A program made the position numbers and the translations under genes. The notes beneath the pieces were generated by a model. That model saw only the letters and a program-made list of their open reading frames with translations, made no database searches and had not been told where the DNA came from. A stretch of DNA of 64,000 bases. Origin: Candidatus Omnitrophota bacterium (GTDB lineage: Bacteria > Omnitrophota > Omnitrophia > Omnitrophales > JACQLI01). The stretch spans positions 789 through 64,788 of the forward strand of contig JACPCP010000012.1 of assembly GCA_016179745.1 (NCBI GenBank), read 5' to 3'. Shown piece by piece: positions 374-50,100 of the stretch (position 1 is the first letter of the stretch; every line of letters starts with the position of its first letter).

Positions 374-374
374 C

Positions 375-1182: not shown

Positions 1183-1218
1183 AGCTTTCACCTCCTCGTA
1201 ATACTCCAGTCTGAAAAA

Positions 1219-1247
1219 AGTATGTCTGATAGTATGCCTAAAGTCAA
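1219..1247 (-). promoter_or_regulatory. putative sigma70-type promoter of the RHH-mazF-RHH operon
   Basis: Minus strand reads TTGACT (1247..1242), a 17-nt spacer, then CATACT (1224..1219). It lies in the 62-nt gap between the stop at 1254 and the antitoxin gene. Confidence 0.4.
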
Positions 1248-1253
1248 GCTTGC

Positions 1254-3746: not shown

Positions 3747-4498
3747 CGTAATCTGCTTATCATAGGACTCAGACCATCTTCTCTCATTTCCGTTGGAAAA
3801 ACCATTTGAAGCGCTAAGTCCCTTGTGATGCCTGCCAATTTTTTCAGTTTATCCTTGAGAGAAACCATATCGGGCCTAAGATCCCTTTGTAACTCTTCTC
3901 TTGTTGCCTTCCGTCCGTCCATCCCTTCCTTAAAAGATTTACCAATCAAATCGACTACTCTTGTAATCTCTCTTTCCCATGCCTCTGCCATCAGCCGCTG
4001 ACGGATAATCCGCTCGCCCTGAGTCTTCAATTCCCTTCCGACCCTGAGACCCTTCCTCTCAGAAGATGAAGTTAATGTTTCTACCTGGCCGGCGGCTTCT
4101 TTGTGGGTCCTCTGCAAGAGTTTCCTCAGGAAACTCTGAACTTTTCTTTGAGAGCCACTCCGCACCTCGGCGCGGGAAAGGGAATTTTCCGGAATATTGG
4201 GAGATGCGCTTTTATCATCAAAAAGTATTTTATTTTTTATATTGACAGGGCCCCTTCTCCCCGTTAGAATCTCCCACGTTATGGATGATAATTTCACGCC
4301 CAGGGAAGTCGCAGTACTGGTGGAGGAACTCTGCAGTGAGTTTCGGACCGTTTCAGAAGTCGTGCGGCCGTTAAGGGAGGATATGGCCGATGTCAAAGAA
4401 CGGCTTACGACTCTTGAATTCAAAGTCCAATCGCTTGACGATGCGGTTCGCCTCTCAATCCCCGGCTTGAACAAGCGCGTTTCCCGCCTCGAAGTCAA
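3689..4498 (-). CDS. 269-aa open frame in phase with ORF 4562..20122 (continuation after a single TAA); N-terminal ~110 aa are the antisense image of the + gene 4281..4511
   Basis: ORF track (TTG start). It has the same codon phase as the 5,186-aa ORF and contains motif copy 4160. The part after the motif (SGSQRKVQSFLRKLL...) has normal composition. The part before it is Ser-rich low complexity. Confidence 0.3.
   Translation of the reverse strand: MTSRRETRLFKPGIERRTASSSDWTLNSRVVSRSLTSAISSLNGRTTSETVRNSLQSSSTSTATSLGVKLSSITWEILTGRRGPVNIKNKILFDDKSASPNIPENSLSRAEVRSGSQRKVQSFLRKLLQRTHKEAAGQVETLTSSSERKGLRVGRELKTQGERIIRQRLMAEAWEREITRVVDLIGKSFKEGMDGRKATREELQRDLRPDMVSLKDKLKKLAGITRDLALQMVFPTEMREDGLSPMISRLRCFVKRTSSHFSYWAKCRL
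4160..4174 (-). repeat. punctuation motif copy, RAEVR, canonical DNA
   Basis: The + strand reads ccgcacctcggcgcg(g). It is in frame. Context LSRAEVRSGS. Confidence 0.9.
4242..4270 (+). promoter_or_regulatory. +-strand sigma70-type promoter (cassette 1) with AT-rich upstream block
   Basis: TTGACA (4242..4247), a 17-nt spacer, then TAGAAT (4265..4270). The upstream block ttttatcatcaaaaagtattttattttttata matches the block at 12610..12641 at 32 of 38 positions. Confidence 0.65.
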
Positions 4499-4537: not shown

Positions 4538-4567
4538 CTTACGCTTCCTTACGCCGAAGTCTTACGC
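4538..4567 (-). repeat. three copies of GCGTAAG (minus strand) placing TAA in all three phases
   Basis: The + strand has cttacgc at 4538, 4548 and 4561. On the minus strand TAA falls at 4564 (phase of ORF2), 4551 and 4541, so the three stops are in three different phases within 26 nt. Confidence 0.8.
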
Positions 4568-29100: not shown

Positions 29101-32100
29101 GCTTCGGGCCGTGGCCGCAATGGTAATGCCGTTCAAGCCGTGCCGCCGATAGTAAGCCCGAACCGGTGTCCCGGGCACGAGCCCATATTGCAGGTAATAT
29201 TCGCTCAGCCGTTTTAAATTGGGGTCCAGCGCCTCGAGCACCTGAAGCGCCACTTCCCGGGTAACAGGGTTAGTCTTCTGATGGCGAAGATCAAAAATCA
29301 GCCGGCCCAGATTTGAACGTTTGGAGAGGTATTCCCTGTGCTTCCTCGGGTCCTTGATCTTCACGATGTTCGTGGTTACTTCCCGGCGCCGGTCGAGATA
29401 ATCCACAACCGCCCGGCTCCCCCCCTGATAAAGCCGGTAGATCAGCCGGGTCGCATAGAGAAGGGTCCCGGCCATCGCCACTCCCTTGACGCCCGTCACG
29501 GCGTCCTTCGGAAGGAGTTTCAGGACAGCCTTGATCTTTTCCTTGAGCGCCTCATCATCCGCCTCGTCCCTCAAAGCGGCGGCCAGCTCCCGATAACGTT
29601 CCTTCAATTCGTCCGGATAACCTTTCACGGCCTCTTCCAACTGACGCCTGACACCGGGCTCATTCGGCCTCGCCTCTGCCCAGAGATACCGAATGAGCAA
29701 GAACAGGTAAGCGCCTGCTGTGGCGTAATTCGCAAGGGTGATGAGCCGGCCTGCGGTGGTGTGAGGGTCTCTGGCCCTCGGGTCGAGAAAATGGGCAAGG
29801 GCCCCGGCGGCGCCGAGCGCTGACTCTTTGGGTTCTGCCAGGACTTCTCCGACTTTTCCGCCGACAAACTTCGTCATCTCAACGGCGCTTTTCCCTCCCC
29901 AAACGGCGGTCCGGGCCGTCGTGTCCGAAAGTCTCAGGAAGAGGATGAGCCGGGTGATGGCGTGATCGGCCCGGTCAAACGGAGTCAGGGCCGTGTTTCC
30001 CTTGCGGGTAATCGTGTCATTGATAGCACTCACCGCCGTTTGAAGCTGGGTCCCGAGCTTGGGATTCACCCCCCACTCCTCCACTTTGACTTTGTCCAGG
30101 GGGTCCCGAAGCCATTCTGTTAAATCGTCAATGCGTTTGGGAAGGAACTCTGCAGCGTAGTCCTGAAAATCAAAGACCAGCCCTTGAAGCACCCCGCCGA
30201 TCATGGCCGTTCTTTGATCACCGAGGTAGCGCTCCGACAAGGCGCTCAAGACCGGAAGCGCAATTCGCACGGTCTCAAGAACGTAGCGGTAACTTTGCAG
30301 GAGCGACTGGATCCGGGCAACATTTTCTTCCGTCAGTTCGTCCTGGCGCCCGATTTTTTCCTCAAGCGCTGAGAGCTCCTTTCGAAGGGTTTCGAGTTCG
30401 CCGGCGAATTCATTCAGGCGGGCCAGCTCGTAAAGCGGCTCTTCGAGCGTATCCCGGAGAAAATCGTCCTGCTCGAGATCTCTCACCTCTCCCACGAGGG
30501 AACGGCTTCGCCACCAGAGACGGGTCGCCTCTGGGAGGTCCGGAATCCGCCGGGACACCGCCCGGCCGTGAACATAGGCCTGAAGCACGGCCTGGATTCT
30601 TGAAATCTTCGCCTGCTGCAGGGCAATTTTATAATCCACGTGCCCGGTCTGAATCACTGTGGGTTTCCCTTTGTGCACCTTGAGATCAAAACTCAAGTCC
30701 GTTCCCGGAATCTTGAACCTTCCCCCATTTTGGACAACCGTTCGTGTCTCGGGCCCCGGACCCGGCAAACCTTCGATCTGGACCCACCCCCCCTCCCTCG
30801 GCATCAGGGTCAGGGTCAGCCTGTCCCAGTTCGGAAGATCGAGAATGACCCGTGACTTGTAAAGAGGAGGCACGACCCGCCCTTCGGGGCTTGTAAAGGT
30901 CAGGGTTTGATCTTTCTTGTCAAACTTCAATTGGTAAGGCCTCGGCGTTTCGGGCGTGCCAAACTCCAGGGTGAGCGGCCCGTCCGAGACCCGGTCCGTG
31001 ACCGTAACCCCCCGGGCATTGACATAGCGGACTTCTGCCTGATCGTCAGAAATCACATTCACCACGACCTTGTGGTTTGTAATTTCTTCTCCGGGAATTG
31101 AAATCTCGTAAGTTTGGTTTGTGTCAAGGCGCCCCTCGATCGGAGGGATTGGCAGCGCCGTGCCCCGGATAAAATTAAGGGCCGCTTCTTTGATGATCCC
31201 GAGCCGGCTCGTGGGTTCGGGAGTTCCGAAAAGCGTGTCCACAAGATAGATCAAGGCCCTCGGGGCCAGATTCCAAAGCCAGCCCGTGGCCTTCTCGGCA
31301 TTTTCGACGATGCCGGCGCCGATCATTTTCACGAAGAAATCCCTGAAGCTGAGACCAAAGCTCGCCTTGAAGACATCCGCTCCCCAGTGGGCCATGGCCA
31401 TCCGGCGCTGAAAGCTCTCCAGCTCCTCCACGGCCCGGTCAATCCGGGTCTGGTCCCGCCCGGCCTCCCGCTCCTCTTCCGGTGTCAGCACCCGCCCCTG
31501 AAATTCCTCGACTTCGGCAAAATCTTTAATCTCCTCCGCCAGCGTCGTGCGGGTCTTGAGGACGCCCCTCACGTCACGCCAGCTTGTAAGCTTCTCCACC
31601 AAAAGACGCCGGAGTTCCTCAAGGTCCCGGTCCCTCAAGATGACCGCCTGGTAACGGTTGATTTCCCGGTTTGCGGCCTCCGCCGTCCCCACTGGGCCAA
31701 ACACCTGAAGGTGCGGAATGATCCCTTCAAAACCCTCCTCGTCCCGGTTCTGGATATTTTCCACAATGTCCCGCCGGACCGCCCTCGGAAGGATCCGGTT
31801 CCATTCCGACTGATACGGCTTCAAGGTATTTTTCTCATTGTCCCGATAAATGACATAAAGGGCCTGAACGACTTCGGGGCTGAACTTTCCAAGCGTTTGG
31901 ACATTTCTCTGAAAGGCCTGGGTCTCCGGATGCACATCCGGTTGAATCGTAAAGAGGGGAAAAAGAATTTCGAAAAGCCGGTCCCGGTTTTTCTCCTCCA
32001 GGCCGTCAACGCCTTGCTTCAACGTGAGCGAGCGAAACGCCAGCTTGAGCCGTTCGAGCTCGGCGGTGTTCACGACTTCGAAACCGGGTTTCGGCGTGCC

Positions 32101-35100
32101 GCTTTCCTCCGTGGGAATTTTCCCGAGTTTTTTGTCGAGCGTCACGTGGAAGAACATCCGCAGCATAAAATCCCGGAGACGGCGGCGGGTTTCGTCGGCT
32201 CTCGGACCCGTGCCGACCAACTGTTCAAAAAGGACCGGGTCGTGGATGATTTCGGCGAGGCGGCCGTATTGATTCTTCTGGAAACGGGTGGCGATATTTC
32301 CCTTCCCGATGGCGTTTTCGATGAGTTCCTCAAAGAGATCCAACGGGGTCCCGGTAATCCCGTGTTGGGCGATTTCGGTCCGCTTCTCAAGAAGCCCGGA
32401 AGGCACGGCCAGCCCCTCAGCGGCGTAATACGCTTCAACCAGACCGTTGATTTCACGAAGGAACTCTTCGTTTTGAATTGCATCCGAAATTTCTTTTGTG
32501 CGCTCAAGCTCAAGGCCCGTGAATTCCACGCCGTGCGAGGTGCCGTTGTGAATGGCGAGAAAGTCCGGTTTGACGCCGCCCCGGGCCAGCATTCGAAGGA
32601 AGGTCTTCGCTTCAGCCACGGTCGTCACCTCCTGCTCGGGTAGATTCTTCTCCGTCATCACGACCTGCCCCGTCACGGGGTCGATCTTCGGGCGGCCGAC
32701 TTCGCCGACTTCCAGTTCGAGCGAAGGGTTCCGAAGCTGGACGTAACGCAGGGCCGCAAGGCTTCGATCCACGTTCTTCTCAAGCGCCGCCTCGGCGACC
32801 TTTTCGTCCAGTTCTTCAATCTTTTTTGCCAGTTCAAGATTCCGTTTCGCCTCCTCTTCCGTAAGAAATTCTCCGTCGGCGATCTTCGTAAGATAAACCG
32901 CCCGCTCCCGCCGGAGACCGTCGAGATTCAGTTCGGCCTCCTTCGCCTTCGCCGCCTCCACGTCGTAAAGGTGGGAGGCATCTATCGCAAAAGAGGTGTA
33001 ACCCGCCTTTTGAAGCTCTTTGAGGTAGCCGATAACGGTTAGCATCTCCTTCTCGTCGCCGGTCTTGATGCTGACATGGTCGGCGTGGAGAATCACGGGG
33101 CCTTTGAACGCCTGGCGCCGGATTTCCTCATACAGATTATCCGCCAGCTGGACCGCATCGTAAGCGTAGCCGTGTTCCGAGCGGGCGATTTCGACAATGA
33201 TGGGGACATCGAATTTCTTGGCGGCGGCCACGATGGCCTCGAGGATAATCGGTGAACGGGCCGTCGCCGACATAATGATCCCCTTGTAGCCGTGGCGGCG
33301 GTAGAAACTGCGAACCGGAGTCGCAGAAACAGGCGAATAGGTCAGGTAGTGCTGGATGAGCCGGCGGACATCGGGATCAACGGCTTCAAGCTGATGATAA
33401 AGCTTCTCACGAACTTCGGGGTCACGGTGATAGATCAAATCATCAAGGATTGCGTCGAGGTGCTCCCGGACAAAATCTTTGGCCTTCGTTTCGTCCACGA
33501 CCCGGTGGGTCGAAACATAAACCGGGGCGTCCGCCGGGGGCGCCTTGTTCGCCGGCGAGGCCGGAAAGAGCATCCAATAAAGGAAGCGGCCGATCATCAC
33601 AAGGCTGGAAACAACAAATACAAGCTCTGCGGCCTCGAGACGGTCTTTCGGCAAAAGGTGTCTCAGGAACCTTAAGACATAAGCCCGGGCTTCGTCCGAG
33701 TCTCCCCGCTTCACCGCCTCCGACCAGCCCTGAAGGGCGGTTTGAATTCCTTCCACATGATGTTCCTCAATCTGCTCCCCGGTGATCGTCTCCTGGGTCA
33801 GGCCCCCCCGCCAATATTTGTAAAGGAGATAAAGTCCGCTCACCGAAGCGAGGACGACATCCGGGTGAGAGGTGACAAAATTCCCGGCACGAGTGCCACG
33901 GAAAAGGACAAAGTTCCGCTCCACATAATGGCGGATTCTCCCCTTCTCAGAGTCCTCACCCGAATCCTGCCGGACTTCAGATCTCTTAAGCGCCCCCTCC
34001 AACGTGCCCCGGGCGCCTTCTTGGACCGGGTGAAAAGCCCACTGGCCTGTCGCCCGCCCGGCAAGGAGAGAGACCGCCAGCGCCCGGTCGGCCGCCTTCA
34101 GGAAAAAGGCGGCCCGGAGTCCGCTCAAAATGATGCGGTCCGAGCTTGTCATTTCGCCCTGCCGTTCAAACCATTCGATCGCCCGCACCCCGGCCCGGGT
34201 CCCAAGCAGAAGACCGAAACTCATCTTATCACCCGCATCCGCCATAAGGTTCAGGGCCTCGTGCATTTTTTTCGACGTCCGTTCCACAAGACCCGGCGTT
34301 CCCGGGCCGCCGATCACGACCCCTTCGATTTCCCGGCCGAGGGATTCGGCCCGGCTGTAATTCTCCGGTGAAAGAATCTTTTCGCCGGCGATCCCCAGAA
34401 GCCGGGTCGAGACCTCATAGGTCTCCAGATACATCAGGAGCGTCAGGATCTCATCCACCCGCTGATCGAAGAGGGGCGGGCCCGGCTTCAAAGCCTCCTC
34501 GGCCGTGTCCCGGTTGAATTCTTCAATCGCCTTTTTCAGTTCATCAAAAGTGCGAAGGTAGCCTTGCTGCTCTTCCGAGGAAAGCGAAGGGAGGGCCTGA
34601 CCCGCTATCTTGGCCGCCGCCGACTGGGCCACGAGACGGTTGTTCAGATCATAGAAGGCCTTCAGAGGTCCCGTCCAGAAACGGTTCTTAAAAAACGAAT
34701 CGTAAAGGGACCCGGAGGCCTCGAGGCCGTGCCGGGAAAGCACCAAAAAGGCGGCGGTCCTCACCAGGTAAAGCTTGGCGAGGGCAAGCTTCCTGCCTCT
34801 CTTGCCGGGCAGCACATCCGCCGGAGGCGGGGAAAGCATCGGGTCTTCGGCATATTCCCAGGGAAGCGCTTCTTCGTTCCAGGGATAACGTCCGCTGTCT
34901 TCATCATCACCCCATTCGGTCACGGGATCCGGTTCGGCTTTTTCTGCGGCCGGCCCTTTCGGCGGGACGGGCGTCCCGGAAAAAGTTTCCCTCAGGCGCC
35001 GCATCGCACCGGAGAAATAGGAGGAGCCGGGATAATTCGATTCGACGGACCCCGTCCAATCGCCGATCAGGGCCCGCAACTTGTCAGCGAGGCCGTCCGG

Positions 35101-38100
35101 ATCGTAATCTAAAAACTTCAGACCCATCCGGGCGAGGTCGGCATAAACGGTCCAAAGCAGAATTTGGTTTGCCAGACCGTCCAGGCGGGTGCGGGCCGGC
35201 CCGAGCTCTTCGTCGGAAAGCGCTTCCATCTGATACTCGATCTCCGTGACAAAGGCCCTCTCATAGACCGAAAGATCGGGCGTTTCAGATTCCGGATCCC
35301 TCACGAATTTCTCCGGATGATTGATGAATTCGGAAAGTGACTGGAACGGGGACCTGAAACCCCGGGTCTCCGCCTCCTGATCGATCAGGTTGAAAAGCGG
35401 CGTGTCTTTGTCGAGCTTAAATTCAAACTTCCCGATCTCATCCCGGAAGTGAAAGTGCCGGGCCGGACGAAGAGATTGAATCCTGGGATGCGAATCGTAG
35501 TTCGGGTTTTTCACAAACCGCACCTCGCCATTGTCGTCCCATTCGGGGTAGTAGGCAAAACCCTGTTTTGCTTTGACCCAGTCATATTCCGACCGGGCCT
35601 CCCTCGAATTCCAGTTGACGATGGCCAGCGTGTCGTTGCCTTCGTTCACGGTAATGTGGTCGTAACCGGGGGGCACCAGCACAAATTCCCCGGCCTCGGC
35701 CCGGAGGACTCGAAAATCAACCACCTTTCCCGCTGCATTTCTTTTTTGCAGAACGAAACGTCCCCGGCCCTTTACAACGCCGTAGAGTTCAGCAGTGGCA
35801 AGCGCCGGGTAGAATTTGGCGCTTTTCTGCAGGGCCGGGTGGTCCTTTGTGAAGCGTTTGTGTCCGTGACCCACGGTCTGAGTTCGAGATGGGATCAGGG
35901 TCACATCAAAATCCAGGCCGGCCGCCTCCATCTTGGTTTGATCGTGGGTCCCCCGGCGGATCAGCCGGCGGTAGGCTTGATAAAGAAGTGTTTGCGGCGG
36001 AAGCGCCGAAACCCGCTGATGGATCCCTGAATCCGGGTGGTAGAAGGCCGCTGCTTCTCCGGCTGTTTTTGTGTATCGTGGGCCGGCCGCTTCAAGATTG
36101 TCTCCCAAGTCAAGTTCCAGACCGTAATCATCGACCATCCGGACCGAAAGGCCGATGAGCTCCTCCATGGATTTCCGGGCCGGCGCCCTCAGGCTCGCTC
36201 CAAAAACCTCGACCCCCGTTGTTTCCGGCGTCAGGTTGTCGAGAGAAAAATGGGGTTGGGGTTTTGGCACTTCGGGGAGATTGAAATCTTTCGCCGTCAA
36301 AGGTTCTGCCTCCGTTTTTTCCCCGGCCTGCGCCGAGACCGGTCCTTGCGACTCGGCGAACTCCTTGTCAAGCCCCTCGGCCTCATGCCGTCTTCGGGCG
36401 AGCGCCACTTCGATGGAAACGTCGTGGACCCGGTTGGCGTAGCCCCATTCGTTTTCATACCAAAAAGAAACCCGAATAAGGTTTCCCTCCACGGAGGTCT
36501 TTCTCGCCAGAAAGATGGAAGACCGGCGTTCGTGCAGGATGTGTCCGGAAGAAGGGATCCAGTCCGCCGAATAGCCTAGAATATCCTTGAGTTCTCCCTC
36601 GGCCGCTTTCTTCAGGATGCCGTTGATGAGTTCCTTGGTGACGTTCCCCTCCATCTCCTTCGGCATCTTGTCGATCCGGAGCGTGAGGTCGATCACCGAG
36701 CCCGTGTCGTGGGCCGCACGGATCGCCTGCACTTCGGAGACGCCCCGAAACTGAGTGAGAATTCTCCCGAGTTCCTGCCCGGCGCCGGAAGATTGAATCA
36801 CGAGATTTCTTGCGCTGTCCGCCCACTCAAAAGGCCCCCGCTGGCTGCGGGTCCGGGCGTGGATCGTGAGCCCGAGCGCCGCACCGATGGAGACGGCAAG
36901 CTGATTGAGTCCCGTGGTCAGGGCATGGGCCCCGGGAATCGTCCCATTGGAAGTGCAGGAAGAACAGGAGATGATGGCATCCAGGTCTCTTTCGGAAAGA
37001 ACGAGGTCCTCATTCACGCCCCAAAGAATGGTCGAGGTATCGTCCTTGGCCGGGTTCGTCATAATGACCGAGTAGCCCTCGTCCGTATAAGGCTTGGCCC
37101 CCTTTCGGGAATAACGTTCCTTGAGACCGCTGCCGTCGATCACCTGCTCCACTTCCATCCGGACCCGCTCCGCTTTGACCTGCCGTGCCTTCCCGTCCGG
37201 CATGAGAACCATCAGGTTTCTCAGGTGTTTTTTAATGAACTCCTCTTTAAACTTTTTCGGGTCCCGGAAGTTAAAAACAGGAATCGCAAGTCCTTTGTTC
37301 AGCGGCGCTCCCTTCCTCCACTGATGGGCCGCTTCGTCCCAAAGTTTTGCGTAGAACCGGACTAGGTAGTTTTTCTCGGTGAGCGATTCGCTGTCTTTAA
37401 TCTGTTCGAGAAGCTCCGGCTTCCCGGGTTCGAGGACCATTTCCTTTCCGGTCTTTTTGTCCACGAGCCCCACGATGAAATCGTATTCGCCCTGAACCGC
37501 ATCGGTCTGCATCTCGGTGGCCCAGTCCTTGAGATTCCGGATCCCATGCAAGGCGGCCGTCTGGACATTCGGGTCCTCGAGGTCCAGTGAAAGCACAATC
37601 TTATCGACCCGGCCGGCGGCGCCGTCCAACACGGTATTGACGGGCTCCACCGGAAGTCCCGTTTTTTCGTCAAGGCGCCTCTTGAAATGCGCCTTCAGGG
37701 GCGAGGGCGGAATGACTTCGGTCACTTGTTTGTAGCCGGGTGAGCTTCGGTTGGCCAGAAAATCCAGGTCGCCGTTCAAGCTTTCCGCAAGGGTTTCGGC
37801 CAGGTGGTCGCCATGGGCCCGTTCGTTGGTCCAGGCCAGAATTTCGACCAGGCCTTCTTTGACCCGGAGATTGTCGGCATTGATCACGATAATATTTCTT
37901 TCATCCGCATAACGGGTGGAAGGCTGCGCCTTTCCCCCGGCAACTCGCAGTAAACCCTTCAAGGGTCCTTCGGCCGCTTTTTCAAGGGCCAGGAGGACTT
38001 CCTCTTGATTGACCTCCGGGTCCCCGAGATCGACCACAAGGTTAAGAAGCGTGGCGCCGGACGGCACATCGCCTTCAAAGGTGTCTCCTCCCTCTTTCTT

Positions 38101-41100
38101 GGTCTGGATATTTTTTCGGGAAAGAGCGCTCCCCCCGTTAAAAATCTCCACGAGCCCTTTCCCGGGCCGGACATAACGGCTCACATCCACCAGTTCGCCG
38201 CCGACCTGCTGCCGGGGACGGACCACCACGGGTGCGGCCCAGTTCTTGACGCCGTCGGCCGGGGCCTTGCCTCCGGCATCCGAAAAAGCCTCATTGAGGG
38301 CCTGAAGAATAAGACCGGATCCATAAGTAACGGGTGAGGGCTGGACGACGACCCCCTCTTTCATTCCCAAATCGTCTTCGGGGCTGATGTCCTCCTCGGG
38401 GCTCACCACAAAAATCCGGCGGACTTTTCCTTCATAGCTTTGAAGCCGTTCGGCCCTCCGGGCCTCGGCAATCGCTCTTTTGGGCCGGCGGGCACGGGCG
38501 TCGGTCACATAAAGATAATCCTGCTGGAGGAAGTCCACCAGCACATCGGCCCCCAGGGTTTCAAGATCTTCCGCCGTGGCAAGATCCGGATAAAGTTTGA
38601 TTTCCCTCCCATTGATCAGAAGATTTCCAGAAGCGTTCAACTGGATCTCCGCCAGGTTGCGGGAACCTGCCACGTTGTAACGGAGATACTGCACCAGGGC
38701 CTCCCGGCCCGACTTTTCGCCCACCCCGAAGATCGCAAGCGGCGCAAGCTGCGGCACCCGGTTTCTGGAGGGATCGGCAATGAGCGCACGGAGAAAGGCA
38801 TCGAGCTGTTTATTGACTGAAAGGTCGAGGTTGGCATTCGGCTGGTCCGGGAACCCATCGATATTGAGAACGACACGGCCGACGAAGTTCTGCCCTCCGG
38901 TCAATGTCACCGTTCTTTTTCCATCCTCCGGATCCGTCTGGAATTTCCCCTGGACCCTCTGAGTGGGGACATTTTTCTTTTTGAAGAAATCGCCCGCCAG
39001 ATTCCGGTTTACTTTTTCCCGGACCCCTTTTCGGGACTGCGTCCTGACCCCGGGCTTCCGCCATCTCTCCAGAAGCTTCCGGACCCACGAAGGCCCCCGG
39101 CGTTTTTGTTGGGCCCGTTTGGCCTCCCGTTTGAGCTGACGGATTTCTTCCTCCGTCAGGGCCCGGCCCTGCCGGCCCCGCTTTGTGACCTGCTCATTCC
39201 ATTTGCGGCGCACCAGGGCCACCTGATCGGCCACATCCTCCACCCGGTTGGCGTAGCCGAATTCATTTTCATACCAGAAGTAAACCGTGATGAGGTCCCC
39301 TTCTACCCGGGTCTTCTGAGGGATGAAAATAGAAGACTCCCTTTTTCGCATGATCGTGCCGGAAGAGTCATATTCACCGGCTTCATCGACGGCGAGGATG
39401 CCTTTAAGCCGGCCCCGGGCGGCTTTTCGAAGGATCCGGTTGATCTTCTCCGCACTCAGCCTTCTTCCCTTTTTCGCCTTGAAGGTGAACTGCACAATGG
39501 AACCCGTGTCATTGGCAACCCGAGCTGCCTGGACATCCGTGAGTCCCTGCAATTCTTTAATCACGGTGCCGATCTCCCCGCTGGCTCCCGAGTGCTGCAC
39601 CGTCATCGCCCGAGACGAGTCGGCCAGACTGAAGGCGCCCTTCCCGGTCCGGGTCCTGGCATGGACGGTAAAACCCATGCCAACCATGATCTCCAGGACA
39701 CGGTGTAAGGCATGGACCCCCGGGATTAAACTATTCGAGGTGCAAGAGGAGGAAGAGGCGGCATCGAGGTCTTCCGGGCTCAAAAGAATTTCTTCATTGA
39801 CACCCATAATCAGCGATTCCGTCTCGTCTTTGGCCGGAGCTGTCATGACGACCGGAAGCCCCTCATCCAGAAACGGCTGGACATCCTCACGAGTCAGAAG
39901 CCGGCCGGTCGCTTCAATCACCTGCTCAACTCCCAGGTCCAGGAACCGGGTCGCCAGCCGGCCGAGGTCCTTTCTTTCATCGATGAGAGGAACGAGGATT
40001 TCCCTTCCTCTTTCATCCAGATTCAGGGGCTCGCCCCGAAGGTAGATCTTGTTCGCCTCGTCCCAGCGGCGTTGATAGAACTTGAGGTAAACGGGTTTTT
40101 TCTCCTTCACGTGTCTCTTCAAATCCGTGATTTCATTTCCACGGGCGTCAAACGGAACGACCATGAAGTCATACATCACATCGTGCGCCTGATCGACGCC
40201 GGCATTGAGCGAAACAAGGTATTCGGCCTCGTCCTGAAAATTTTCCGGAACGCCGTTCAGGGCCGCAAGGACCCGGTTCGGATTTTTTAGAAGGAGGCCC
40301 AGCTCGTGCCGGCCAATCCGGCCCCTCGCTCCGTTCATCCCCGTCCGGATCGGGACCTTTGTCAGTCTCCGTTTCCGGGCTTGTGCAGGACTCAGCGGAA
40401 TGAGGCCCGGCCGGCTGCTCCACCATTCCCGAAGGCCGGCAAAGGCGTAATGAATCCCCAAAGGCAGCACGGCCGCTCCAAGAAACACAAGCGATCCGTA
40501 AGGTCCGTAAATCGACGTCACAAGGGGGAAAGCGGCAAACGCCTCCTGCCAGCCCTGCACAGTGTCAAATAGAGAAGTCATCCCCAGGGTGACCGGTTTC
40601 AGGACCGGAAGGTCGCCCAGCCAGGAAAACCGGGCGAGGAAATTTGCGAACCGGGCCGCTGACTCGTTTTGGACAAAAAAGTAAAGCGAAAAACCAAGGC
40701 CGAAGAAAAGAAAGGTCCGGTGGACCAGCCGGTAAACGGCACTAAAGGCCGGCGCCGTCGGCTGCCGGACTTCGGCCCGGGACTTTGGTCCGGCCTTTTC
40801 CCTTTTCTGAATCCAATATTTGAGTTCTTTCCTCGAAATTCCTTCCCCTTCCGCCACAAGGGCCTTGTGGATGTTCGCTGCAATGAGTTCCGCCTGGGCC
40901 GACTCATTAAACCAGCCCATCACCCGGACCAGGTTGCCGCCGACCACCCGGACCTGCTCGGCATCGACCACAAGAGGCACCCGCTCGTCGAAAAATTCGG
41001 TGGAGGTCGTCTGCGCCCCTTCCTGCCTGACCACCCGGATCAACCCCGCCAAGGGACCTTGACTGGCATGCAGCAGGGCCTGGACCACTTCTTCTTTCTT

Positions 41101-44100
41101 GACCTTCGAACTCACCACGACGTCCAGCGAAAGAATGCTCGCCCCCTTCGCCACATCCCCTTCTCTCACGAGACCGCCCACCGTCTGCTTCTCAACCCGG
41201 TTGGCTTCGGCGATCTCGATTTCGGGCAGGACCTCCGACAGACCGTTTCCCGGACGGAATTCCGAGCCTCGATCCTTCAAGGCGCCGCCGGCCGTTTGAC
41301 GGTGACGGGTTACACTCGGGCTTGCCCAGTTGGTCACTTTGAAATAATCATCCAAAGTTTTCAGGACCAGGGCGGACACCTGGGTCGCCGGCGAAGCGAG
41401 GGCATGCGCCGGACGGTCTTCAAGGAGCAGCCGGTCATTCACGCCGAAGGCAATGGGGTCGGACCCGACCAGGTCATCTTCAGACCGCACCGCAAAAATC
41501 CTTTTCACTTTACCCTTCTTCCTGAAATCCTCATACCGCCTCCTGCGGTCAGAGGGATTCAGAATGCTCTGGTCATCCGCATCGATCAGGACCTCAACCT
41601 TGTTCTTCTTGAGAGAACGGGTTCCGGCAGTATCGGGTGACAGCCGGATGCGCCGGCCGTTGATCGTGATCCAGCGGCCGGATTTCCGGTCGTAGTCAAT
41701 GACCGCATCGATCACGCCCAGGGCCGCATTGCTTCGAAGGAAGCGGGCAAACCGTTCGGCGCTCTGCACGCCGTAAATGATGACCGGGAACATATCGGGC
41801 CGGCGGTCCCGCCGGAGGTCGGGGATGAGATAACGAAGGAAGGCCGTCATCAGGATATTCGTGGAGTGGTTGACATTGACCGAGGCCTGATCCAGCCAGC
41901 TCTCTTGATTGAAATTGATCGCAATCCGTTTCGGCCGCTCGAAAAATTGCGTCCGGCCGCTTTGGCGGATTTCCTCAAAGGCGGCCCGGTCTTCGGTCAT
42001 TCCGCCCCGGACGAGCGCCGCCGAGGCCCGGAGCACCGCCTCGGTCCCCGGAATCAGGCCGTCCAGTTCCAAATCATCCAGGAGGGCCCCGCCCCCGGTG
42101 GAAATATCAAATTTCACCCCGGCAAGATTCGCCAAATCTTCCGTCTCGCCGCCAGCGGCGATGACAATCTTCCCTTTTTTAAATTGTTTCTCCGCTTCCT
42201 TCATCACCGCCAGCGCCCCGGCCCTTGTCCGGGAATTCTCATACATCCCGGACGGGCCCGAGATCACAATGGCCCCGGACTTTTCAAAGGCCTCGGCAAT
42301 CCGCCCGACCGACACCGGACCGATATCCACCCCGGCCCGGTTCGCATTCTGAGCGCCAAACGGCCCGGTCACCATTTTGACTTCCCCGTCGACGTCAATG
42401 GAACGAGTTTCTACTTCCTTCCCCGTCTTTTTGTCTTTTTCCTTCTTTGCCACCGTCGGCAGGGTGACGTGATCTTCGGTGATCAGGAGATGCACTCCTT
42501 TTTCACGGCTTTGCTTGACGATCTGGAGGGCGTCCTTCAACACCTCTTTCTGGTAGAAGGAGGCACCAATGAGTTCCTTGATCTTCTGATCCGTCAGTTT
42601 GGAAGGATCGGTGTTTGTCTCGATAAGGTATTTGGCCACGATAAAGGTGTAGGCCACCGCCCCGGAAATGATCATGGAGTCTCTCGGTTTCATCTTTTCC
42701 AGGAGTTTCCGGGCCACCGTCACTTTGGAAACCACGCCGGGCGCCACCTCGATCTTTTTTCCGGCCAGAACAAAGGTTGCGGGTTCACGATGGGGCTGGG
42801 CCAAAAATTTCCGGAAGCGATTTTGATGCTTCATCTCCGTGAGATAGCTGTAGCCAAAGGCGGTCCTTCCTTCAAAATGCCCGGGAAGGGCCTTCACCGT
42901 GGGCGAATTCCGGTGGGCCTGCGGGTAATCTTCCTTGATGAGAAAGCCGGCGGGAGACCGATCGTTGACGTCTTTAAAAACACGAACCAGAGAGGCCAGG
43001 TCACGGGCGAAATCTTCATACTGGACGCCCTTCGTCATCCGCTCTTCCGGCCAGAAACGGAGGTTGTCGAGGAAAACCGCCTCGCCCGGTTTCACGTTCT
43101 TTTGGAGGTAATCCCGGGCGGCGTCGAAATACCGTTGGTAATTCTCGTAGCGCCTCCCCGTGGAATCAAAGGCCGGAATAAAGTGGACCTTGAGGCCGGA
43201 GAGTTCCTCAAACTTCTTCGCAATTTTTTCGGTGATGTAAAGCCGCTGGAGATTTTCATCCGAAAGCTTCATGTCGGGCCGGCCGGCGTAAAAAGCGAAA
43301 ATAAGATTGCGGGCCTTCCGCTTCTTGAGGAGGTATTGGGCCGTCGCCACCGGGGCCTGGATGCGGGTCGTGCTTTTGATTTCACCCGTCTTCTCGTCCA
43401 GAACGTCCATCCCCGCCCGGACAATTCCGACTTCGCCCTTCACATCCCGGGTCAGCAAATCTTCCGGACGGGGCACGTTCCAACCGTAGAGCTCCTCAAT
43501 TTTCCGGCGTTCCCGTCGGACCCGGTATTTCCTCCAGCCGCCCGCCACCCACCGGGTGACCCGGTAAGAGACGTAGACCTCGATCGGCAGACTGACCACC
43601 CCGACCAGGGCGTCGAAAGAGCGGTATCGTCTCCTGAGCTCGCCCACCCAACGGCCGGCTTGATACAAAGCGTAAACAGCCAGAAGGCTGCCGACTCCCA
43701 ATAAGATTGCCTGATAAGGATGTTCAATCTCCCAGGCCCCAAAGGTGTCCCAATAAGAGGCGAGCTTCGTCGAAATTCCCCCGGCAGTCCGTCCAAGCGC
43801 CGCCCATTGATTCTGGAAAAATGCCGGCACGGCCGCCGGAAGGAACCGGACCTCCGAACGCCCGGACCAGCGTCTTTCGATACGGTCCATTTGCACCGTA
43901 ACCCAATCATGGATCGTTTGAGGAATGGTGAGGCCCGGCGCTACACCGCCCAGGAGGCGTGCCCGGTCGTATCCCTCCGGGGCATAGGCGTCCCGCCCCT
44001 TCAGGGTGCGTTCCGCTTCACGGATATTCTTCAAATCATCCAAAACCATATACATATGGCGCCGGTCGCCGAGCCAGACCAGATCCACCGGCTTCTTCGG

Positions 44101-47100
44101 CTGGGCGGGATCGCTGTTTTTCGCCTTGAAGAGACGCTCCGCAATCGTTTCCCTTCCTTTGAATCCAAACCCGATCAGATCGGCCTCCTTGGCGGTCAAA
44201 AATAAATTCATGGGCCAAATCCGGTCCTTCGACGGTTTGGGAACACGTTTTCCCGCTTGATTGCGGACGGTATTGACCGGGGCAAATTCCCTAAAGATTG
44301 CCGCCGGAAGCAGGCCTTGAGGATGGGTGTCTCCCCTCAAAGATTTTTCGATGTGATGCTGGAGGGCGCCTGAGAGCCAGTCGGCCCATCGGCTGCCCTT
44401 CAGCCAGTGGCTGGCGAGAAAAGCCTCCGGGGCCAGCGTCATGCGGTAGGTTTCTTCGGCCAGAACGTATTCCACTCTAAATCCACGGCGGCCGTTCGGG
44501 CCTTCAGTGGCCTGGGAAATTCTTTGGAGGAGGGCAATGAACCGGTCGGGCTCACGCAGGTCCTTGGAGTCGGGAACATTGATACGGATTAAGACGTCTC
44601 GAAGAAGACTCCCCTGCCTGACTTCCTCCCAGCTTCTTCCGATCCCATTAAGAATGTGGAGAATATTTTCCACCCACGTGGGCGAGTTTGGTTCTGAGCG
44701 CCCTCTCAAAAAGAGATCGGCCAGGCGGGTAATGTCTTCTTGTTTGAAATCCAATTCAATCCCGCCCTCGGGCGACACGTGGACCCGGTGGAAAATCGCC
44801 GGGCCCTCATCGGGAGGCGCATGACTCTTTGTGACGAGCCAGGCCGCAATCTGACTCACGAAGGCCTGGAGGTGCGGCTCCCAGAAAAAGGTCCAGTTGC
44901 GGGCCCGGAGGAACCGGTCCCTCAAATCTTCAGAGCTCTCCAGTTGAAAATCCGTGTCCGCCAGAAGTTCGTCCCATTCCCTCAGGTTTTCAACCGGACG
45001 GCCTGAAATGGAGGCCTGGGCCGCCTCAAAAAAAGCTTGCTCGGCGACGACCGGAGCGCCGGAAGGCGCCAGGCGATCAAGCTCGCCCGCAATCTCACCC
45101 ACTCGGGCGATGTTGGTCCCCACCAGATGGAGATTCGCAAGATGCCGTCCGCCGGAATCCCTGATTTCAAGAACGTTATGGTCATACGTGAGCGGGCGCT
45201 TTATTCTCGTTAAATAAATCTTCTTATCCCCCAACCCGCCTCGAAGGATCCCTTCGAGTTTCGAGCCATGAGGAACCGGGTCTGCGAATATTTTCCTGCC
45301 CTGCTCATCCTTATCCGTAATCTTACCGGCCTTGAAAGACGGCCACTCGTATCTTGTGCCGTCTTCCCCGGGAAACGGCCGGGTGGTGATAAACTCCACC
45401 GTCCCGTCATTCATAACCACTCCTTCCACAGGAATATCACTTAAATCAGAGGGCAAAAATGAGACCGGGTTGTTGACCGGAATTACAGCGATCGGGTCTT
45501 CGAGGGTCCCCTCATCCTCCGGCTGAACCAAGGTCCAGAGCTTGATCATCACCCGAAGCGCCTTCCAGCGGTCCGGCATTCCGCTCAAGGGAATTCCGAG
45601 TTCCTGGATCCGGTTCCAAATATCTTCGACAATATCCGCCCGGTTTTCCCCCTCGGACCGCCGCCGGGCAATTTCATCCTGAAGGTCCGCCAAATACTCA
45701 TCGAAGGGTTTCCCGTCACCATAGACCATCGCTTCGTCATACCAGCCTTCGGGGATCAATTTTTTCCAGACCCGGTTGAGGGAGTAGGTTTCCTTCATAA
45801 AATCATAGATCGCCCGTTTCGCCTCCCGGCGGTTGCCGCTCCGGCTGGCGACGGCGGTCTCCAGGATCTCCTCCGCCGTCACCTGTGATTCCTGGAGCGC
45901 CGCCCAGTCAAAGAGACCTCGCAAGGCCCGGTCGGTCAGACGAAACCGCCTCATCGAGGCCAGCGCAATTCTCGTGAGCCGCTCCCGCCGGAACCGGGCC
46001 TTCACGGCGGCCAACAGGTCGTGGGCCCGGACCCGCTCCGCATTCCGCTGGGTGTGCTTGTATTGGAACATCTTCCGGAGGACCTGCTTGGCAAACTCCG
46101 GGTCCTTGATGAATTCCAGGAAGATCGGCGCATAATGATTTTCTCCGATAAAGGCCATCTTGTGATTTCTGGAGCCGGCGTCCTTGCGGTAATAATCAAG
46201 GGCCTCGGCTGCCGCCGTCGCCACATAAACAATTTCGGATTTGTAACGGCGGACGTCGGGATCTTTCAGCGCCTCTCTTCGCCGTCCCTTCCACTCCTTC
46301 TTGAGACGTTTTTTCTCCTGCTTAAGTTTTTTCTTTTCACTCTTGAGGCGGGCCCTTTCTTCCGGGTCTAAAGCCGGGTCGGCCAGTCTCTCCGTGATTT
46401 CATCCATTTGCCTCTCCAGTTCCTCGAGGGGCTTTTCATACTGTTGATAGACTGAATAATACGTGTTGGCCGCATCGACAATCCTGGCGATCCGGATTTT
46501 AGGAGGAAGGTTGTCCGTGGAGTGCAGGCTCAGGGTGCCGTCCTGCCAGGCCCGGTATTCTTCTCTGGCGTGAAGGTATCGGGGAGAGCGGGTGAGAATG
46601 CCTGAAGAACGGGTCAAGAGGTAAAGGAAATCCTGGTTGAGATACTCCCAAACCTTTTCTCCCAATTCTCCGAAAAGCCAGGAAAAGAAAGGCGCTCCGA
46701 TCACGAGGACCAGGGCCACGGGCGCCAGAGGAAGGACCCAGCTCATCATCGGAATCCATCCGAATTGCATCGCCAGAGGCGCCAGGATAAAGGCGAGGCC
46801 CGCCGTCCACCGGAAAAAGCCATTGAGGTAAATCCGGTTCAGGATTTTCACCGCTAGATGCCACCCCTTCACCAGAATCCATTGGGGTGCCGCAAGCAGG
46901 TAAAAAAGGGCCGCCGGGAAGAGAGGGAGAATCGAAACCGGTTGAAAAAGAAGCCAGGCCGCACCCCGCACCGGGGCCAGGAAGCGGTTCTTCCACTTCC
47001 CTTCTGAGCTTAAAAGGGCCTGAACGCCGGACCAGCGGGCCCGGAGCGCCTTAAAGTCCGAAACATTCTGGCGGGCGGTTTCCAAATTAGAAACGTAATT

Positions 47101-50100
47101 CCGAAGGATAAAGCCGGTCAGAAAGACACTCGCAACCCAGTCTAATTTGATCACCCACCACCCCATTCCGCCCGGCAATAGAAGGAAGGGGGCGATCAAG
47201 GCCCAGCCTGAAAACATCACCCAGATCAGGACAGCCAGCCGGGCCGCCCTTAAAGGAGAAAACCGGAAGATCCGGTCATAGAGGCCAAAACGGACCTGGA
47301 CAAAAATACTTTTGAACAGGAGTTTGACACGGATCCAGAAACGCACGTGCGGGAGATTGTAGCCGGTCCTCTTAACTTCCTTTTGCATTTCATGCAGGAT
47401 AAATGCTTTTGCTTCTTCCGGAACAATCGTTTCGACGCCCTGAACAAAATTGAAACCCACAATCTCTCTGAGGCGGGGGTTTTTTTCCTCATCGAGCGTC
47501 ACATCAAAACGTCTGCTGACGCCGTTCAAAAAGTAGACATCGTATTGCTCCCCGGTGAGCTGCCGGATCAGGCGGTGCACCCGTGGAAGGTAGCGTTTTT
47601 TATTTTCCAAAACAACGCCGAAGAAGCGGACCAGCGGGCCTGAGCGGGCCGGATCCGGAACGCCGATTTGCCCGGCCGGGACTTTCGTCTCACCCGGCTC
47701 CCCCACCCTCACCTCGGACCGGCGGGTCGGAGAAGGCCGCCAGGCCCGGACCCGTCTCGATTTTCCTCCTTCTTCTTCCCAGCGCTCCGTGAATCTGGAA
47801 GGGTCATTGCCGTGGGTCTCAAAATCATATTCCGGAAGGCCGATCTTTGGATCCATCCCGTAATAAGCGCCCTCTCCGGCCGGAAGCGGCCCGCCCTTTT
47901 CCCGGGCAGATTGACGACGTTTCTCTTCCTCTTCCTCAAGAAGGGTCCGGACCGCCGACTCAAGGTCCTCGTCTTCAAAGATATCCTCTGACATGTCCTT
48001 GCCCCGGGGCAAGGGACTGCCGTCCTCATTAAACTTTTTCAACAGGCCCTCCGGCGTATATTGGTCCTGGCTCTTGTAAAGCGACCACGACACTTGTGTT
48101 ATCTCTGCTTTTGTTCCAAAAATATCCTTGCGGTGATGAAGAATTTCGAAAAGGCGCATCCGCTCCCTGAAATCAGGAAGGCTCCCGGCTGAAAGGATCA
48201 GTTTCGTCAGCTCATAAGCGAGGTCGGAGCGGCGGCCTTTTGTGACGTCGATTTCCCGGTAATACCGGATCCAGAGGTTTTTCTCAAGCATCCAGGCATA
48301 GGCGGCCTTCGTCAATTGAAATCCAAATCCCAGGGGGCCGCCGTTGATCATCCGCCGGACTCGGGTCCGGAAATAAATCCGTTCGAGATGATCGTAGTAA
48401 ATCGCCTTTCGAAGAAAGAAGACCTGCCCTTTGAACAGTTTGTAATACCATTTGGTCATCAGGTATTTGAAACCCAGCCCCCAAAAGATCGAGAAGTGTT
48501 TCGATTCCATGACGTGAAAGCTGTTGATCCGGAACCGGTCTTCCTTCAAGACCCGCTTGGGAATCCGAGGGTGCCGGACATCGAAATGAAGCAGGCGATG
48601 GTGCTGGGGCCGGACCAGGATCCTGACAGTGATCGGTTTGACTTCTGCCTTTTTCCCATTCTTCTCCTTCTCTTCAACGATGTGGTCAAAGACATGCTGC
48701 CGGGCCAGAAGCGCCAGGGCGTGGACCCGCTTGGAGCGGACCGAATAGGGGCGGCTGCCGGCCTCAAAATTTTCCCGCAGCACGGGATGGACGGCGTTGG
48801 CGAGGGAAAACTCCTTCTTCACATACCACTGGTAGGCTTCATAAAGCGAGGCCCATTCGGGATTCCCCCTGAGCACCTCGCCGATCAACTCCACGGAAAG
48901 TTGAATCTTGAATCTCCCATCTTCGCCCCGGGGACCGACGCTGAAAATTTCGGGCCCTAAAAATTCGGAGAGGCGCTGAAGGGCTTCGTAAGACTTTTTT
49001 GGATTTTTTTCCGGATCCCTGAAATCCTCCCAGCGAAATCCCGTGGTGGAGCGGTCAAATGCCCTCTCAAACTCGTTGATCAGTCCGTTCGGGGCTGCCA
49101 GAAAACTCCAGAAGGGCTTCGTGTCCCGGACCGTGAACTGGATCCCGCCCTGCGGGAGAAAAACCGGCTGAGCAAGCCCGGTTTTTTTACCGACCCAATC
49201 GAGGACCTTTCCGAAGCGGCGCCCCCGGGCCCACCGAAGGACCCGGTTGTTGATAAAACGCTTCTGGCCGGCCAGGGCCCGAAGAAAGACCCTGACGACA
49301 TCCCAGCGGATTTGGGTCCGCTCCTCTTCGAGAATGTAATTTTGGACATCCCGGCGGTCGAGCGTCCGGCTGGAAGACTTGGCGCTCGCCAGCGCCTCGA
49401 GCTCGCCCATTTCTTTCACCCGTTCTTTGTAAAGGCGCCGGCCCGGCCCGCCGTCGAAAAGCCTCTCGCCGAGGTGCTCTTCGGCAATCAGAATTTCATC
49501 CGGCCCGGCCGTTTGAATTGTTTCAAGAAGGCTGTCTCCGGCGAGATGGGACTCGATTTTGAACGTCACCTCGACATTATCGATTTTAATGGCTTCCCCG
49601 TCCGGCTCCAACACCACGTCTTCCCTCAAAGGGGGCGCCTGTCTTTCGGGAACTTCAATCGTGGGGGTATGCGTCCTTCTCAAATACTCTTCCACCGCCG
49701 CTCCCACAACGTTCATCACACCATAAAGCTGGTCGTCGGAAACTTTGGCAGGATCAAGGGCTTCCCAAGGAAGCAGGCGGTAATGACCGAGCGCCCGGCG
49801 GACGTCCTCTATCTCTGGATAAGGCATGTGCATTTGAAAAAATATTTCATACAAAATCTCATAGGGATTCTTGTCTCTAAACTGGGGATGGAACCTCGAC
49901 AGGTTGGTCCGGGCCGCTGTAATCATCTGGGCCGCAAGGCGCCGGGTGCTGAGTTCCGTCTCAAACGTGGCGAGGGGGTCGGTCACCACCGCAAGCTGAG
50001 GCACGATCCGGTCGATCAGGCTCCGCACGCCCTCGACGAACTCTGAAAATTCCCGGTCAAGGGCCGTCCACCGGGCCGTATCAAGATGCGGAAACATCGC

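Follow-up and report, generated by a model that had tools for sequence, protein, structure and literature searches.

A Cys-less GAPDH-fold unit precedes a Cys-type GAPDH unit in a giant protein of Candidatus Omnitrophota and in related large multi-enzyme proteins

Introduction

Why should one polypeptide carry four GAPDH-like units in a row, two with an active-site cysteine and two without? The question is raised by a 64,000-nucleotide (nt) stretch of a Candidatus Omnitrophota bacterium genome (assembly GCA_016179745.1, contig JACPCP010000012.1, positions 789 to 64,788), hereafter called the window. Its minus strand contains a giant open reading frame (ORF) of 14,593 amino acids (aa), in which the four units, A to D from the N-terminus, lie between a PGK module and a cupin-type glucose-6-phosphate isomerase module (Table 1). 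The initial annotation of the window described A and C as Cys-less and B and D as catalytic-type units, and proposed that the Cys-less ones are pseudoenzyme partners of the others.

Giant ORFs are known in Omnitrophota (PMC10066038). In the 'Archaeovorins', TIM, PGI, FBPase, PGM/PMM, and FBA domains were listed and predicted to be extracellular, a prediction doubted by the authors themselves (West-Roberts et al. 2023, bioRxiv 10.1101/2023.11.21.568195). A class of 'multi-enzyme metabolic clusters' was defined by Nielsen & Lui 2026 (bioRxiv 10.64898/2026.06.07.730766). GAPDH and PGK are absent from the main text of the former study. The latter gives them as genome-wide KEGG Orthology (KO) calls only and mentions neither pseudoenzymes nor, for the giants, the Pfam families Gp_dh and PGK.

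Results

Units A to D are homologues of GAPDH

Units B and D matched solved GAPDHs with E-values of 1.5e-34 and 1.4e-27, respectively (phmmer), and the NCBIfam GAPDH-I model with E-values of 1.5e-38 and 3e-37. Unit A matched solved GAPDHs with an E-value of 2.4e-6, its residues 46-344 aligning onto GAPDH residues 27-318, and unit C matched them in two collinear pieces (E 3.5e-6). A and C shared 35 % identity from end to end (E 1.5e-53), B and D shared 39 % (E 6e-88), and the similarity of A or C to B or D was marginal only, indicating that the four units are of two paralogue types.

A profile built from a 12-member Cys-less family was compared with the GAPDH profile. HHalign paired them over 307 columns with a probability of 99.75 % (E 3e-27). 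The AlphaFold2 model of unit A, made with the 12-member alignment, had a predicted local distance difference test (pLDDT) score of 83.8 and a predicted template modelling (pTM) score of 0.88. When this model was compared with the PDB by Foldseek, the best 50 matches were all GAPDH or E4PDH (E ~1e-23, TM scores of 0.7-0.8). The fold of unit C was taken from its 35 % full-length identity to the modelled unit A. The Pfam family Gp_dh_C, whose gathering score is 24.4 bits, gave 28.6 bits for A and 16.9 bits for C, above and below that score, respectively, and Pfam recognised 4 of the 12 members of the Cys-less family. Profile and predicted fold agreed in placing the Cys-less units in the GAPDH family, as the initial annotation had supposed, and A and C are full-length, two-domain GAPDH homologues, collinear with GAPDH.

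Membership of A and C in another family of the same superfold was considered and rejected, as all significant NCBIfam, PDB, and Foldseek matches were GAPDH or E4PDH.

Catalytic residues are lost from the Cys-less units and kept in the Cys-type units

Catalytic sites were tabulated for 12 Cys-less and 12 Cys-type units (10 of each from other proteins) in the numbering of the E. coli GapA precursor. The column of Cys149 (Cys150 in the table) held no cysteine in any of the 12 Cys-less units; it was Pro in 10 of them, in an S-P-x-T or E-P-V-T context. The column of His176 (His177 in the table) held His in none of the 12. Arg231 (Arg232 in the table) was absent from all 12, being a gap or another residue in the MAFFT alignment, and HHalign paired its position with a mostly acidic column of the Cys-less family. 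The Thr180 position (table numbering) was variable. Tyr312 was lost in 11 of the 12 units and Asn314 in seven, and the Glu315 position was Glu or Asp in every one.

The Cys-less family had features of its own. Its GxGxxG loop was replaced by a conserved N-R-[IV]-x-D-A-[FY]-L-R...GDPN sequence, and, in the HHalign alignment, some 9 residues were deleted from its S-loop region. The family-specific motifs were N-R-x-x-D-A-F-L-R, S-P-x-T, and a Gly-Ala that is invariant and follows an inserted loop. Nine of the 12 members, A and C included, contained no cysteine at all; hence no catalytic Cys shifted by a few residues, a possibility that the initial annotation had left open, was overlooked in A or C. 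Four independent criteria mark A and C as catalytically dead. We refer to the Cys-less units as dead and to the Cys-type units as live.

The live units kept Cys, His, Thr179, Arg231, Asn313-Glu314, and Tyr311 in 12 of 12 cases. Unit B reads SSSSCTSN with TVHART and unit D reads SCSSCTSN with TIHART, and these sequences align to Cys149 and His176 of solved GAPDHs. All the active-site motifs quoted in the initial annotation were found on the minus strand at the sites it had given (Table 1). It had also described the C-terminal WY(D/E)NE(W/F)GY block as intact only in the Cys-type units, and this was so; the Cys-less units carry WFNESAQ and WTNERAH. We infer from these residues that GAPDH catalysis is carried out by B and D.

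In the giant protein, cysteine is confined to the active sites of the live units

The giant protein contained three cysteines in 14,593 aa, Cys8061, Cys8990, and Cys8987, all in the active sites of B and D. No cysteine was found in the 5,186-aa ORF that follows it (4562-20122 (-)) or in an 830-aa histidine-kinase-like ORF (1254-3746 (-)). The two other reading frames of the giant-ORF DNA would encode 305 and 457 cysteines. Ordinary neighbouring genes, among them a tRNA synthetase gene beside the locus in Logan assemblies and genes flanking the related loci from metagenome-assembled genomes (MAGs), of which three carry an Omnitrophota label, had 0.6-2.2 % Cys. The related multi-enzyme proteins described below had 0.04-0.15 % Cys. 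In eight of them, the only two cysteines in 1,400-4,700 residues were the GAPDH nucleophile and a Cys located 3-4 residues upstream. A nucleophile kept against so strong a purge of cysteine is hard to explain unless it is used. Cysteine is mentioned neither in the main text of West-Roberts et al. nor in the Nielsen & Lui preprint. Its confinement to GAPDH active sites in ~20,000 residues of the locus is unusually direct sequence evidence for catalytic use, and the pattern bears on the role and location of giant proteins in predatory or episymbiotic ultra-small bacteria.

A second Cys, located 3-4 residues upstream of the nucleophile, was observed in 11 of the 16 Cys-type units examined, P0011 being left out of this count. 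It stood in the contexts C-A-S-C-TTN or F-C-S-[DA]-A-S-C-TTT. Unit D (Cys8987), P0002, P0005, P0007, P0009, P0010, P0013, P0026, and L002-L005 had it; unit B, P0003, and P0004 (= L006) did not. This Cys may form a protective disulfide or act as a redox switch.

The dead unit is followed by a live unit in related large proteins

Relatives were searched for with a profile of units A and C (HMMER, 1.84 billion representative proteins, E ≤ 1e-3). The 40 matches comprised 10 large multi-enzyme proteins of 1,423-3,921 aa, two proteins rich in repeats, and, for the remainder, ordinary GAPDHs or fragments of them. When GTDB representative genomes were scanned with a pattern, five loci emerged, all with the dead-then-live order inside a long ORF. 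Three of them came from MAGs titled Candidatus Omnitrophota (L004, L005, and L006), and one of these three, L006, was identical to P0004.

In each of the 14 other proteins, which are the ten from the profile search and four further long ORFs from the genome scan, a live unit came after a dead one within a single chain. The spacing between the two was ~20-150 residues in 13 of the 14; in the remaining one, P0011, two further dead GAPDH-like units lay between them. The pairing of active and inactive units to which the initial annotation had drawn attention in the window was therefore a property of all these proteins. Organism labels were available for four of them (L004, L005, L006, and P0011), and all four read Candidatus Omnitrophota. 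P0011 is MFH1395151.1, which GenBank annotates only as 'triose-phosphate isomerase [Candidatus Omnitrophota bacterium]'. Its residues 1420-3197 comprised four GAPDH-like units, three Cys-less and one Cys-type, indicating that the copy number of the dead unit varies and that this expansion was independent of the two-plus-two arrangement of the window.

The other neighbours of the pair varied. PGK lies upstream in the window protein, P0002 has a cupin PGI upstream and TIM-PGK downstream, and P0009 has PPDK upstream. The live GAPDH was the sole constant companion of the dead unit.

Neighbour-joining placed the dead units in one clade and 11 of 12 live units in another, the live unit of P0011 grouping with ordinary GAPDHs. 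The dead and live subtrees had the same internal topology, and pairwise distances between dead units were correlated with the corresponding distances between live partners (Mantel r 0.94, p ~2e-4), showing that the two halves co-diverge. The mean distance was 0.82 for dead and 0.76 for live units, indicating that the dead units diverge slightly faster. The sequences of the relatives had diverged to 21-36 % identity. Because the arrangement of a dead unit before a live one is found again in at least 14 related large proteins, we regard the dead copy as probably an inherent partner rather than debris.

A phylogeny of the four units, proposed in the initial annotation, placed A as the sister of C and B as the sister of D, indicating that the whole dead-then-live block was duplicated in the lineage of the window. 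The alternation in the window arose when an older module of two units was duplicated as a block in this lineage, and involves no designed A-B-A-B pattern. A recent tandem duplication of DNA was rejected as its source: no repeat is left at the DNA level, and the protein identity is 35-39 % only.

Other searches gave no relatives. A word-index-prefiltered protein search returned no match for the 1,850-aa region, unit A, or the 12-sequence alignment, and the prefilter evidently misses this family. The search of genome contigs with the A and C alignment found no relative, nor did that of metagenome contigs with the A and C and the B and D alignments.

Linkers and membrane topology

The linker between A and B contains an RAEVR pentapeptide and two hydrophobic segments, which probably form a transmembrane hairpin; this topology was derived from a hydropathy scan. 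The basic outer flanks of the segments suggest, by the positive-inside rule, that A and B are both on the cytoplasmic side. The B-C linker is rich in Lys and Arg (Table 1), and that between C and D is short and free of hydrophobic segments. RAEVR and the hairpin would have entered the A-B linker after the block duplication.

The pentapeptide is one instance of a recurrent motif, R[SA]E[VIL]R, of which RSEVR and RAEVR are the commonest forms. There were 17 sites in the giant ORF against 0.3 expected and 13 in ORF 4562-20122 against 0.1 expected. The motif was also present in ORFs 1254-3746 and 3689-4498; examples in the window are at 40765-40779, 43846-43860, and 33970-33984. Its codons varied synonymously, and the sites were located at module boundaries, often just before a transmembrane helix. 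Among related large ORFs, L002 had five sites and L003 seven, and two sites of L004 bracketed exactly one dead/live pair. The motif may be a processing or sorting site. A literature search on the RSEVR peptide found nothing relevant.

The N-termini of seven of the ten related multi-enzyme proteins (P0002, P0003, P0005, P0009, P0011, P0013, and P0026) resembled signal peptides. They had basic residues, ~20 hydrophobic residues, and then an A-x-A-like end.

Discussion

The dead unit as a probable oligomer partner in cis

Phosphorylating GAPDH is an obligate homotetramer, a dimer of dimers, and its lone subunits are unstable or not fully active. If each giant, membrane-tethered chain held one GAPDH only, that GAPDH could not easily assemble with three others identical to it. 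A second copy placed in tandem would supply a partner in cis, independent of concentration, and this copy, being needed only for the interface, could lose the cofactor site and the catalytic residues. A pseudo-dimer would result from one pair, and a pseudo-tetramer of two live and two dead units could result from two pairs. Such a role in cis fits the invariant adjacency of the two units, their co-divergence and near-equal constraint, and the full fold that the dead unit has preserved, and we infer that dead and live units pair physically. Taken together, B and D as working enzymes, A and C as GAPDH-fold pseudoenzymes, each pair as a copy of a conserved dead-then-live module, and the dead unit as a likely oligomer partner in cis make up the interpretation that we favour, and we regard it as moderately probable.

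Several observations weigh against this interpretation. Some concern the activity of B and D. Pfam reported no Gp_dh_N in either unit even at E ≤ 10. On the NCBIfam model TIGR01534, B scored 132.8 bits and D 128.6 bits, far under the 367.2-bit equivalog cut-off. The Gly-rich loop, canonically NGFGRIGR, is NGARGRIGR in B and DGAAGRVDK in D, with one residue inserted, and its last Gly is Asp in D. The Asp32 that determines NAD specificity is Gly in both units. Others concern the pairing. RAEVR and two hydrophobic segments lie between A and B, which would end up as separate polypeptides if the chain were cleaved there, or on opposite membrane sides if the number of helices were odd. The AlphaFold model of the C-D pair, made from a 2-sequence alignment, had a pLDDT of 35.6 and was uninterpretable. 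The S-loop of canonical GAPDH contributes to inter-subunit contact and to the NAD pocket of the neighbouring subunit; the deletion of ~9 residues in this region therefore means that the heteromer would be no simple copy of the homotetramer. Finally, the signal-peptide-like N-termini of the seven relatives would put the glycolytic modules outside the cytoplasmic membrane, where we know of no NAD(P) supply.

The N-terminal match of unit B by phmmer was weak (8.9 bits), the N domains of B and D carry insertions of 45-75 residues, and all four units were far under the NCBIfam equivalog cut-offs.

A wider picture can be drawn only tentatively. It would make the giant protein an assembly line for glycolysis in one chain, tethered to the membrane, possibly extracytoplasmic or prey-directed, and subject to a near-absolute ban on cysteine. 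GAPDH, the only step for which a Cys is indispensable and a monomer does not suffice, would be kept in it by means of its active-site Cys and of dead partners in cis forming a two-plus-two pseudo-tetramer, and R[SA]EVR would mark module limits or cuts. An extracytoplasmic placement, to which the signal-like N-termini point, is consistent with the exclusion of cysteine and agrees with the words 'predicted extracellular' used by West-Roberts et al.

Other explanations

The dead units might instead have been neofunctionalised into a ligand-binding, regulatory, channelling, or docking module with a rebuilt pocket on the GAPDH fold, for example for a triose phosphate or a nucleotide. The family's own conserved motifs, which stand in place of the former cofactor loop and active site, favour this explanation, as does a constraint nearly equal to that of the live partner, and the dead halves of hexokinase I and eukaryotic PFK are regulatory. 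However, with the Arg231 phosphate site and the dinucleotide loop gone, the old ligands are unlikely ones, and the invariant neighbour is the live GAPDH only, not PGK, TIM, or PGI. We consider a new function of this kind rather unlikely, and partnership in cis remains our preferred interpretation.

Alternatively, none of the four units might take part in glycolysis. The giant chain would then be exported as a surface or 'coat' protein, its GAPDH-like units would be adhesins or scaffolds, and the live-looking residues of B and D would be kept for a Cys-dependent role outside catalysis. Exclusion of cysteine resembles the exported proteins of some bacteria, and surface GAPDH is an adhesin in some bacteria; the near-total exclusion seen here and the signal-peptide-like N-termini of seven relatives would agree with export. 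An extracellular location and a part in prey attachment have been proposed for giant Omnitrophota proteins (PMC10066038; West-Roberts preprint), and the glycolytic domains in the West-Roberts preprint were predicted to be extracellular. Nevertheless, the complete catalytic set (Cys, His, Thr179, Arg231, Asn313, Glu314, and Tyr311) is kept in 12 of 12 live units, the remaining modules make a nearly continuous glycolytic series, and the basic flanks of the A-B hairpin suggest that both units face the cytoplasm. A surface role free of catalysis is quite improbable in our view.

Functionless duplicates decaying in a huge, loosely constrained protein are very hard to credit: giant Omnitrophota ORFs are reported to be poorly conserved with many repeated domains, and Pfam misses all but 4 of the 12 dead units, but the dead unit is kept upstream of a live one in 14 other proteins at 21-36 % identity (adjacent in 13), retains a confidently predicted full GAPDH fold and family-specific conserved motifs, and evolves at a rate close to that of its partner.

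Comparison with known systems

All four units share, collinearly, the two-domain fold of Type I GAPDH (E. coli GapA; Geobacillus stearothermophilus, PDB 1gd1 and 1dbv), and B and D also keep its Cys149, His176, Thr179, Arg231, and WY(D/E)NE block. Unlike Type I GAPDH, the units here are embedded in a 14,593-aa chain, and A and C have none of the catalytic and cofactor-binding hallmarks. A further difference is the second Cys, at +4 in Type I GAPDH, at -3 in unit D, and absent from unit B.

Tandems of a live and a dead half in one chain are known from 100-kDa hexokinase I, with its inactive N-half, eukaryotic PFK, and the pseudokinase-kinase arrangement of JAK. The D1 and D2 domains of receptor tyrosine phosphatases are another example (PMC7320164). 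As in these four systems, the pairs here arose by internal duplication, with one half catalytic and the other conserved but dead; in contrast to them, the pair itself was duplicated here, and the dead half is N-terminal.

Chloroplast GapA/GapB (A2B2; PDB 2pkq and 7q53) is an oligomer of two diverged GAPDH paralogues in a 2:2 ratio. Both of its subunits are active and are separate polypeptides, whereas here one type is dead and the chain is single, at least initially.

Fusions of glycolytic enzymes include PGK-TIM of Thermotoga maritima and TPI-GAPDH of stramenopile mitochondria. They have consecutive glycolytic enzymes in one polypeptide, as does the window protein, but they are far smaller, consist of two active domains, and are not known to contain a dead GAPDH paralogue.

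The giant ORF belongs to the already described class of Omnitrophota giant multi-enzyme proteins. Giant proteins of this class have at least 10,000 aa, tiled enzyme Pfams, HEAT repeats, and multiple transmembrane helices; the 14,593-aa product contains at least 12 distinct Pfam families, HEAT repeats, and ~12-14 hydrophobic, transmembrane-like segments. The Omnitrophota giants of both preprints likewise have an ORF of >10,000 aa, HEAT repeats, many transmembrane helices, and tiled TIM, PGI, FBA, and PGM/PMM modules. In contrast to them, no dockerin was found in the window protein.

Our literature search on GAPDH pseudoenzymes and tandems found nothing pertinent, and no conserved dead GAPDH fused upstream of a live one. 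The dead/live GAPDH module appears to be new, whereas both the live/dead tandem pattern itself and the giant protein class are known. The module would add GAPDH to the short list of enzymes with a live/dead tandem, and it offers a concrete answer to a general problem, that of fitting an obligate homo-oligomer into a giant single-chain multi-enzyme protein. The dead-unit profile also annotates stretches of ~370 residues, 8 of 12 of them not recognised by Pfam, and so explains part of the 'dark' sequence of Omnitrophota giants.

Features of the locus

The features of the giant ORF are listed in Table 1. The module order given in the initial annotation (PGK, A, RAEVR with two hydrophobic segments, B, C, D, and cupin GPI) is the one assigned by Pfam. 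The limits of units A to D in the table differ slightly from those of the initial annotation, which they refine.

Table 1. Features of the giant ORF. Nucleotide positions are those of the window, and residue numbers are those of the giant ORF.
Feature	Nucleotides	Strand	Residues	Remarks
Giant ORF	20143..63924	(-)		14,593 aa; multi-enzyme; holds all four GAPDH-like units
Giant-ORF modules				Pfam: HEAT repeats, TIM, aldose 1-epimerase, GFO/IDH/MocA oxidoreductase, PGK, 4 GAPDH-like units, cupin PGI, 2 class II FBP aldolases, metallophosphatase, PGM/PMM
TIM module			1118-1365	Pfam
PGK module	42067..43446	(-)	6827-7286	PF00162, E 4.4e-44; immediately upstream of unit A
Unit A	40825..41934	(-)	7331-7700	Dead GAPDH-fold module; no cysteine, no GxGxxG loop
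LASPATQVSAL, unit A	41368-41400	(-)	7509-7519	Active-site block
Cys replacement, unit A	41389-41391	(-)	Pro7512
RAEVR pentapeptide	40765..40779	(-)	7716-7720	Between A and B
Two hydrophobic segments, A-B linker	40432..40716	(-)	7737-7753 and 7808-7831	Basic flanks; Kyte-Doolittle scan
Unit B	39199..40404	(-)	7841-8242	Cys-type GAPDH module; WYENEFGY
SSSSCTSNSL, unit B	39727-39756	(-)	8057-8066	Active-site block
Catalytic Cys, unit B	39742-39744	(-)	Cys8061
His, unit B	39661-39663	(-)	His8088
B-C linker	38893..39198	(-)		102 residues, Lys/Arg-rich
Unit C	37744..38892	(-)	8345-8727	Dead GAPDH-fold module, sister of A; no cysteine
QPSPVTYGSGL, unit C	38311-38343	(-)	8528-8538	Active-site block
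Cys replacement, unit C	38332-38334	(-)	Pro8531
Unit D	36385..37716	(-)	8737-9180	Cys-type GAPDH module, sister of B; WYENEWGY
SCSSCTSNGT, unit D	36940-36969	(-)	8986-8995	Active-site block
Second Cys, unit D	36964-36966	(-)	Cys8987
Catalytic Cys, unit D	36955-36957	(-)	Cys8990
His, unit D	36859-36861	(-)	His9022
Cupin-type glucose-6-phosphate isomerase module	35509..35991	(-)	9312-9472	PF06560, E 2.5e-18; downstream of unit D

PGM, PGI, FBA, TIM, GAPDH, and PGK in the giant ORF, with iPGM in the next ORF, make a near-continuous glycolytic series. That next ORF, of 5,186 aa (4562-20122 (-)), begins 20 nt past the giant ORF and encodes a pyridoxal phosphate (PLP)-dependent enzyme, a response-regulator receiver, and an iPGM N-domain. 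The glycolytic series of the locus thus reaches beyond the giant ORF.

A further block of the giant ORF was also found to be duplicated internally (31612-33834 and 27481-29706 (-), aa 10031-10771 and 11407-12148). The two blocks are ~740 residues each, contain a class II FBP aldolase, and are mostly 43-51 % identical, falling to 26-33 % at both ends. No tandem DNA repeats were detected in the window. No Rfam family was matched in its 64,000 nt, and an RNA element in the GAPDH region was ruled out by this lack of a match.

ORFs of 269 and 830 aa (3689-4498 and 1254-3746, both (-)) overlap by 58 nt. Where the window has these two, L007, the Logan-assembled version of the locus, has a single 1,085-aa HATPase_c gene (275-3532). 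The window is therefore probably frameshifted here, by a sequencing error or as a real variant.

At 608-931 (-) there is a gene for a PemK/MazF-type toxin, preceded by a small partner ORF. An identical PemK/MazF protein was encoded on contigs of SRR12113390, SRR12113426, SRR12113429, SRR12113432, and SRR12113433; these runs identify the sample series of the window's organism.

Several long ORFs of up to 612 aa (e.g. 41866-43704) run on the plus strand over 33000-46000, antisense to the giant gene, whose GC-rich coding sequence most likely gives rise to them as by-products.

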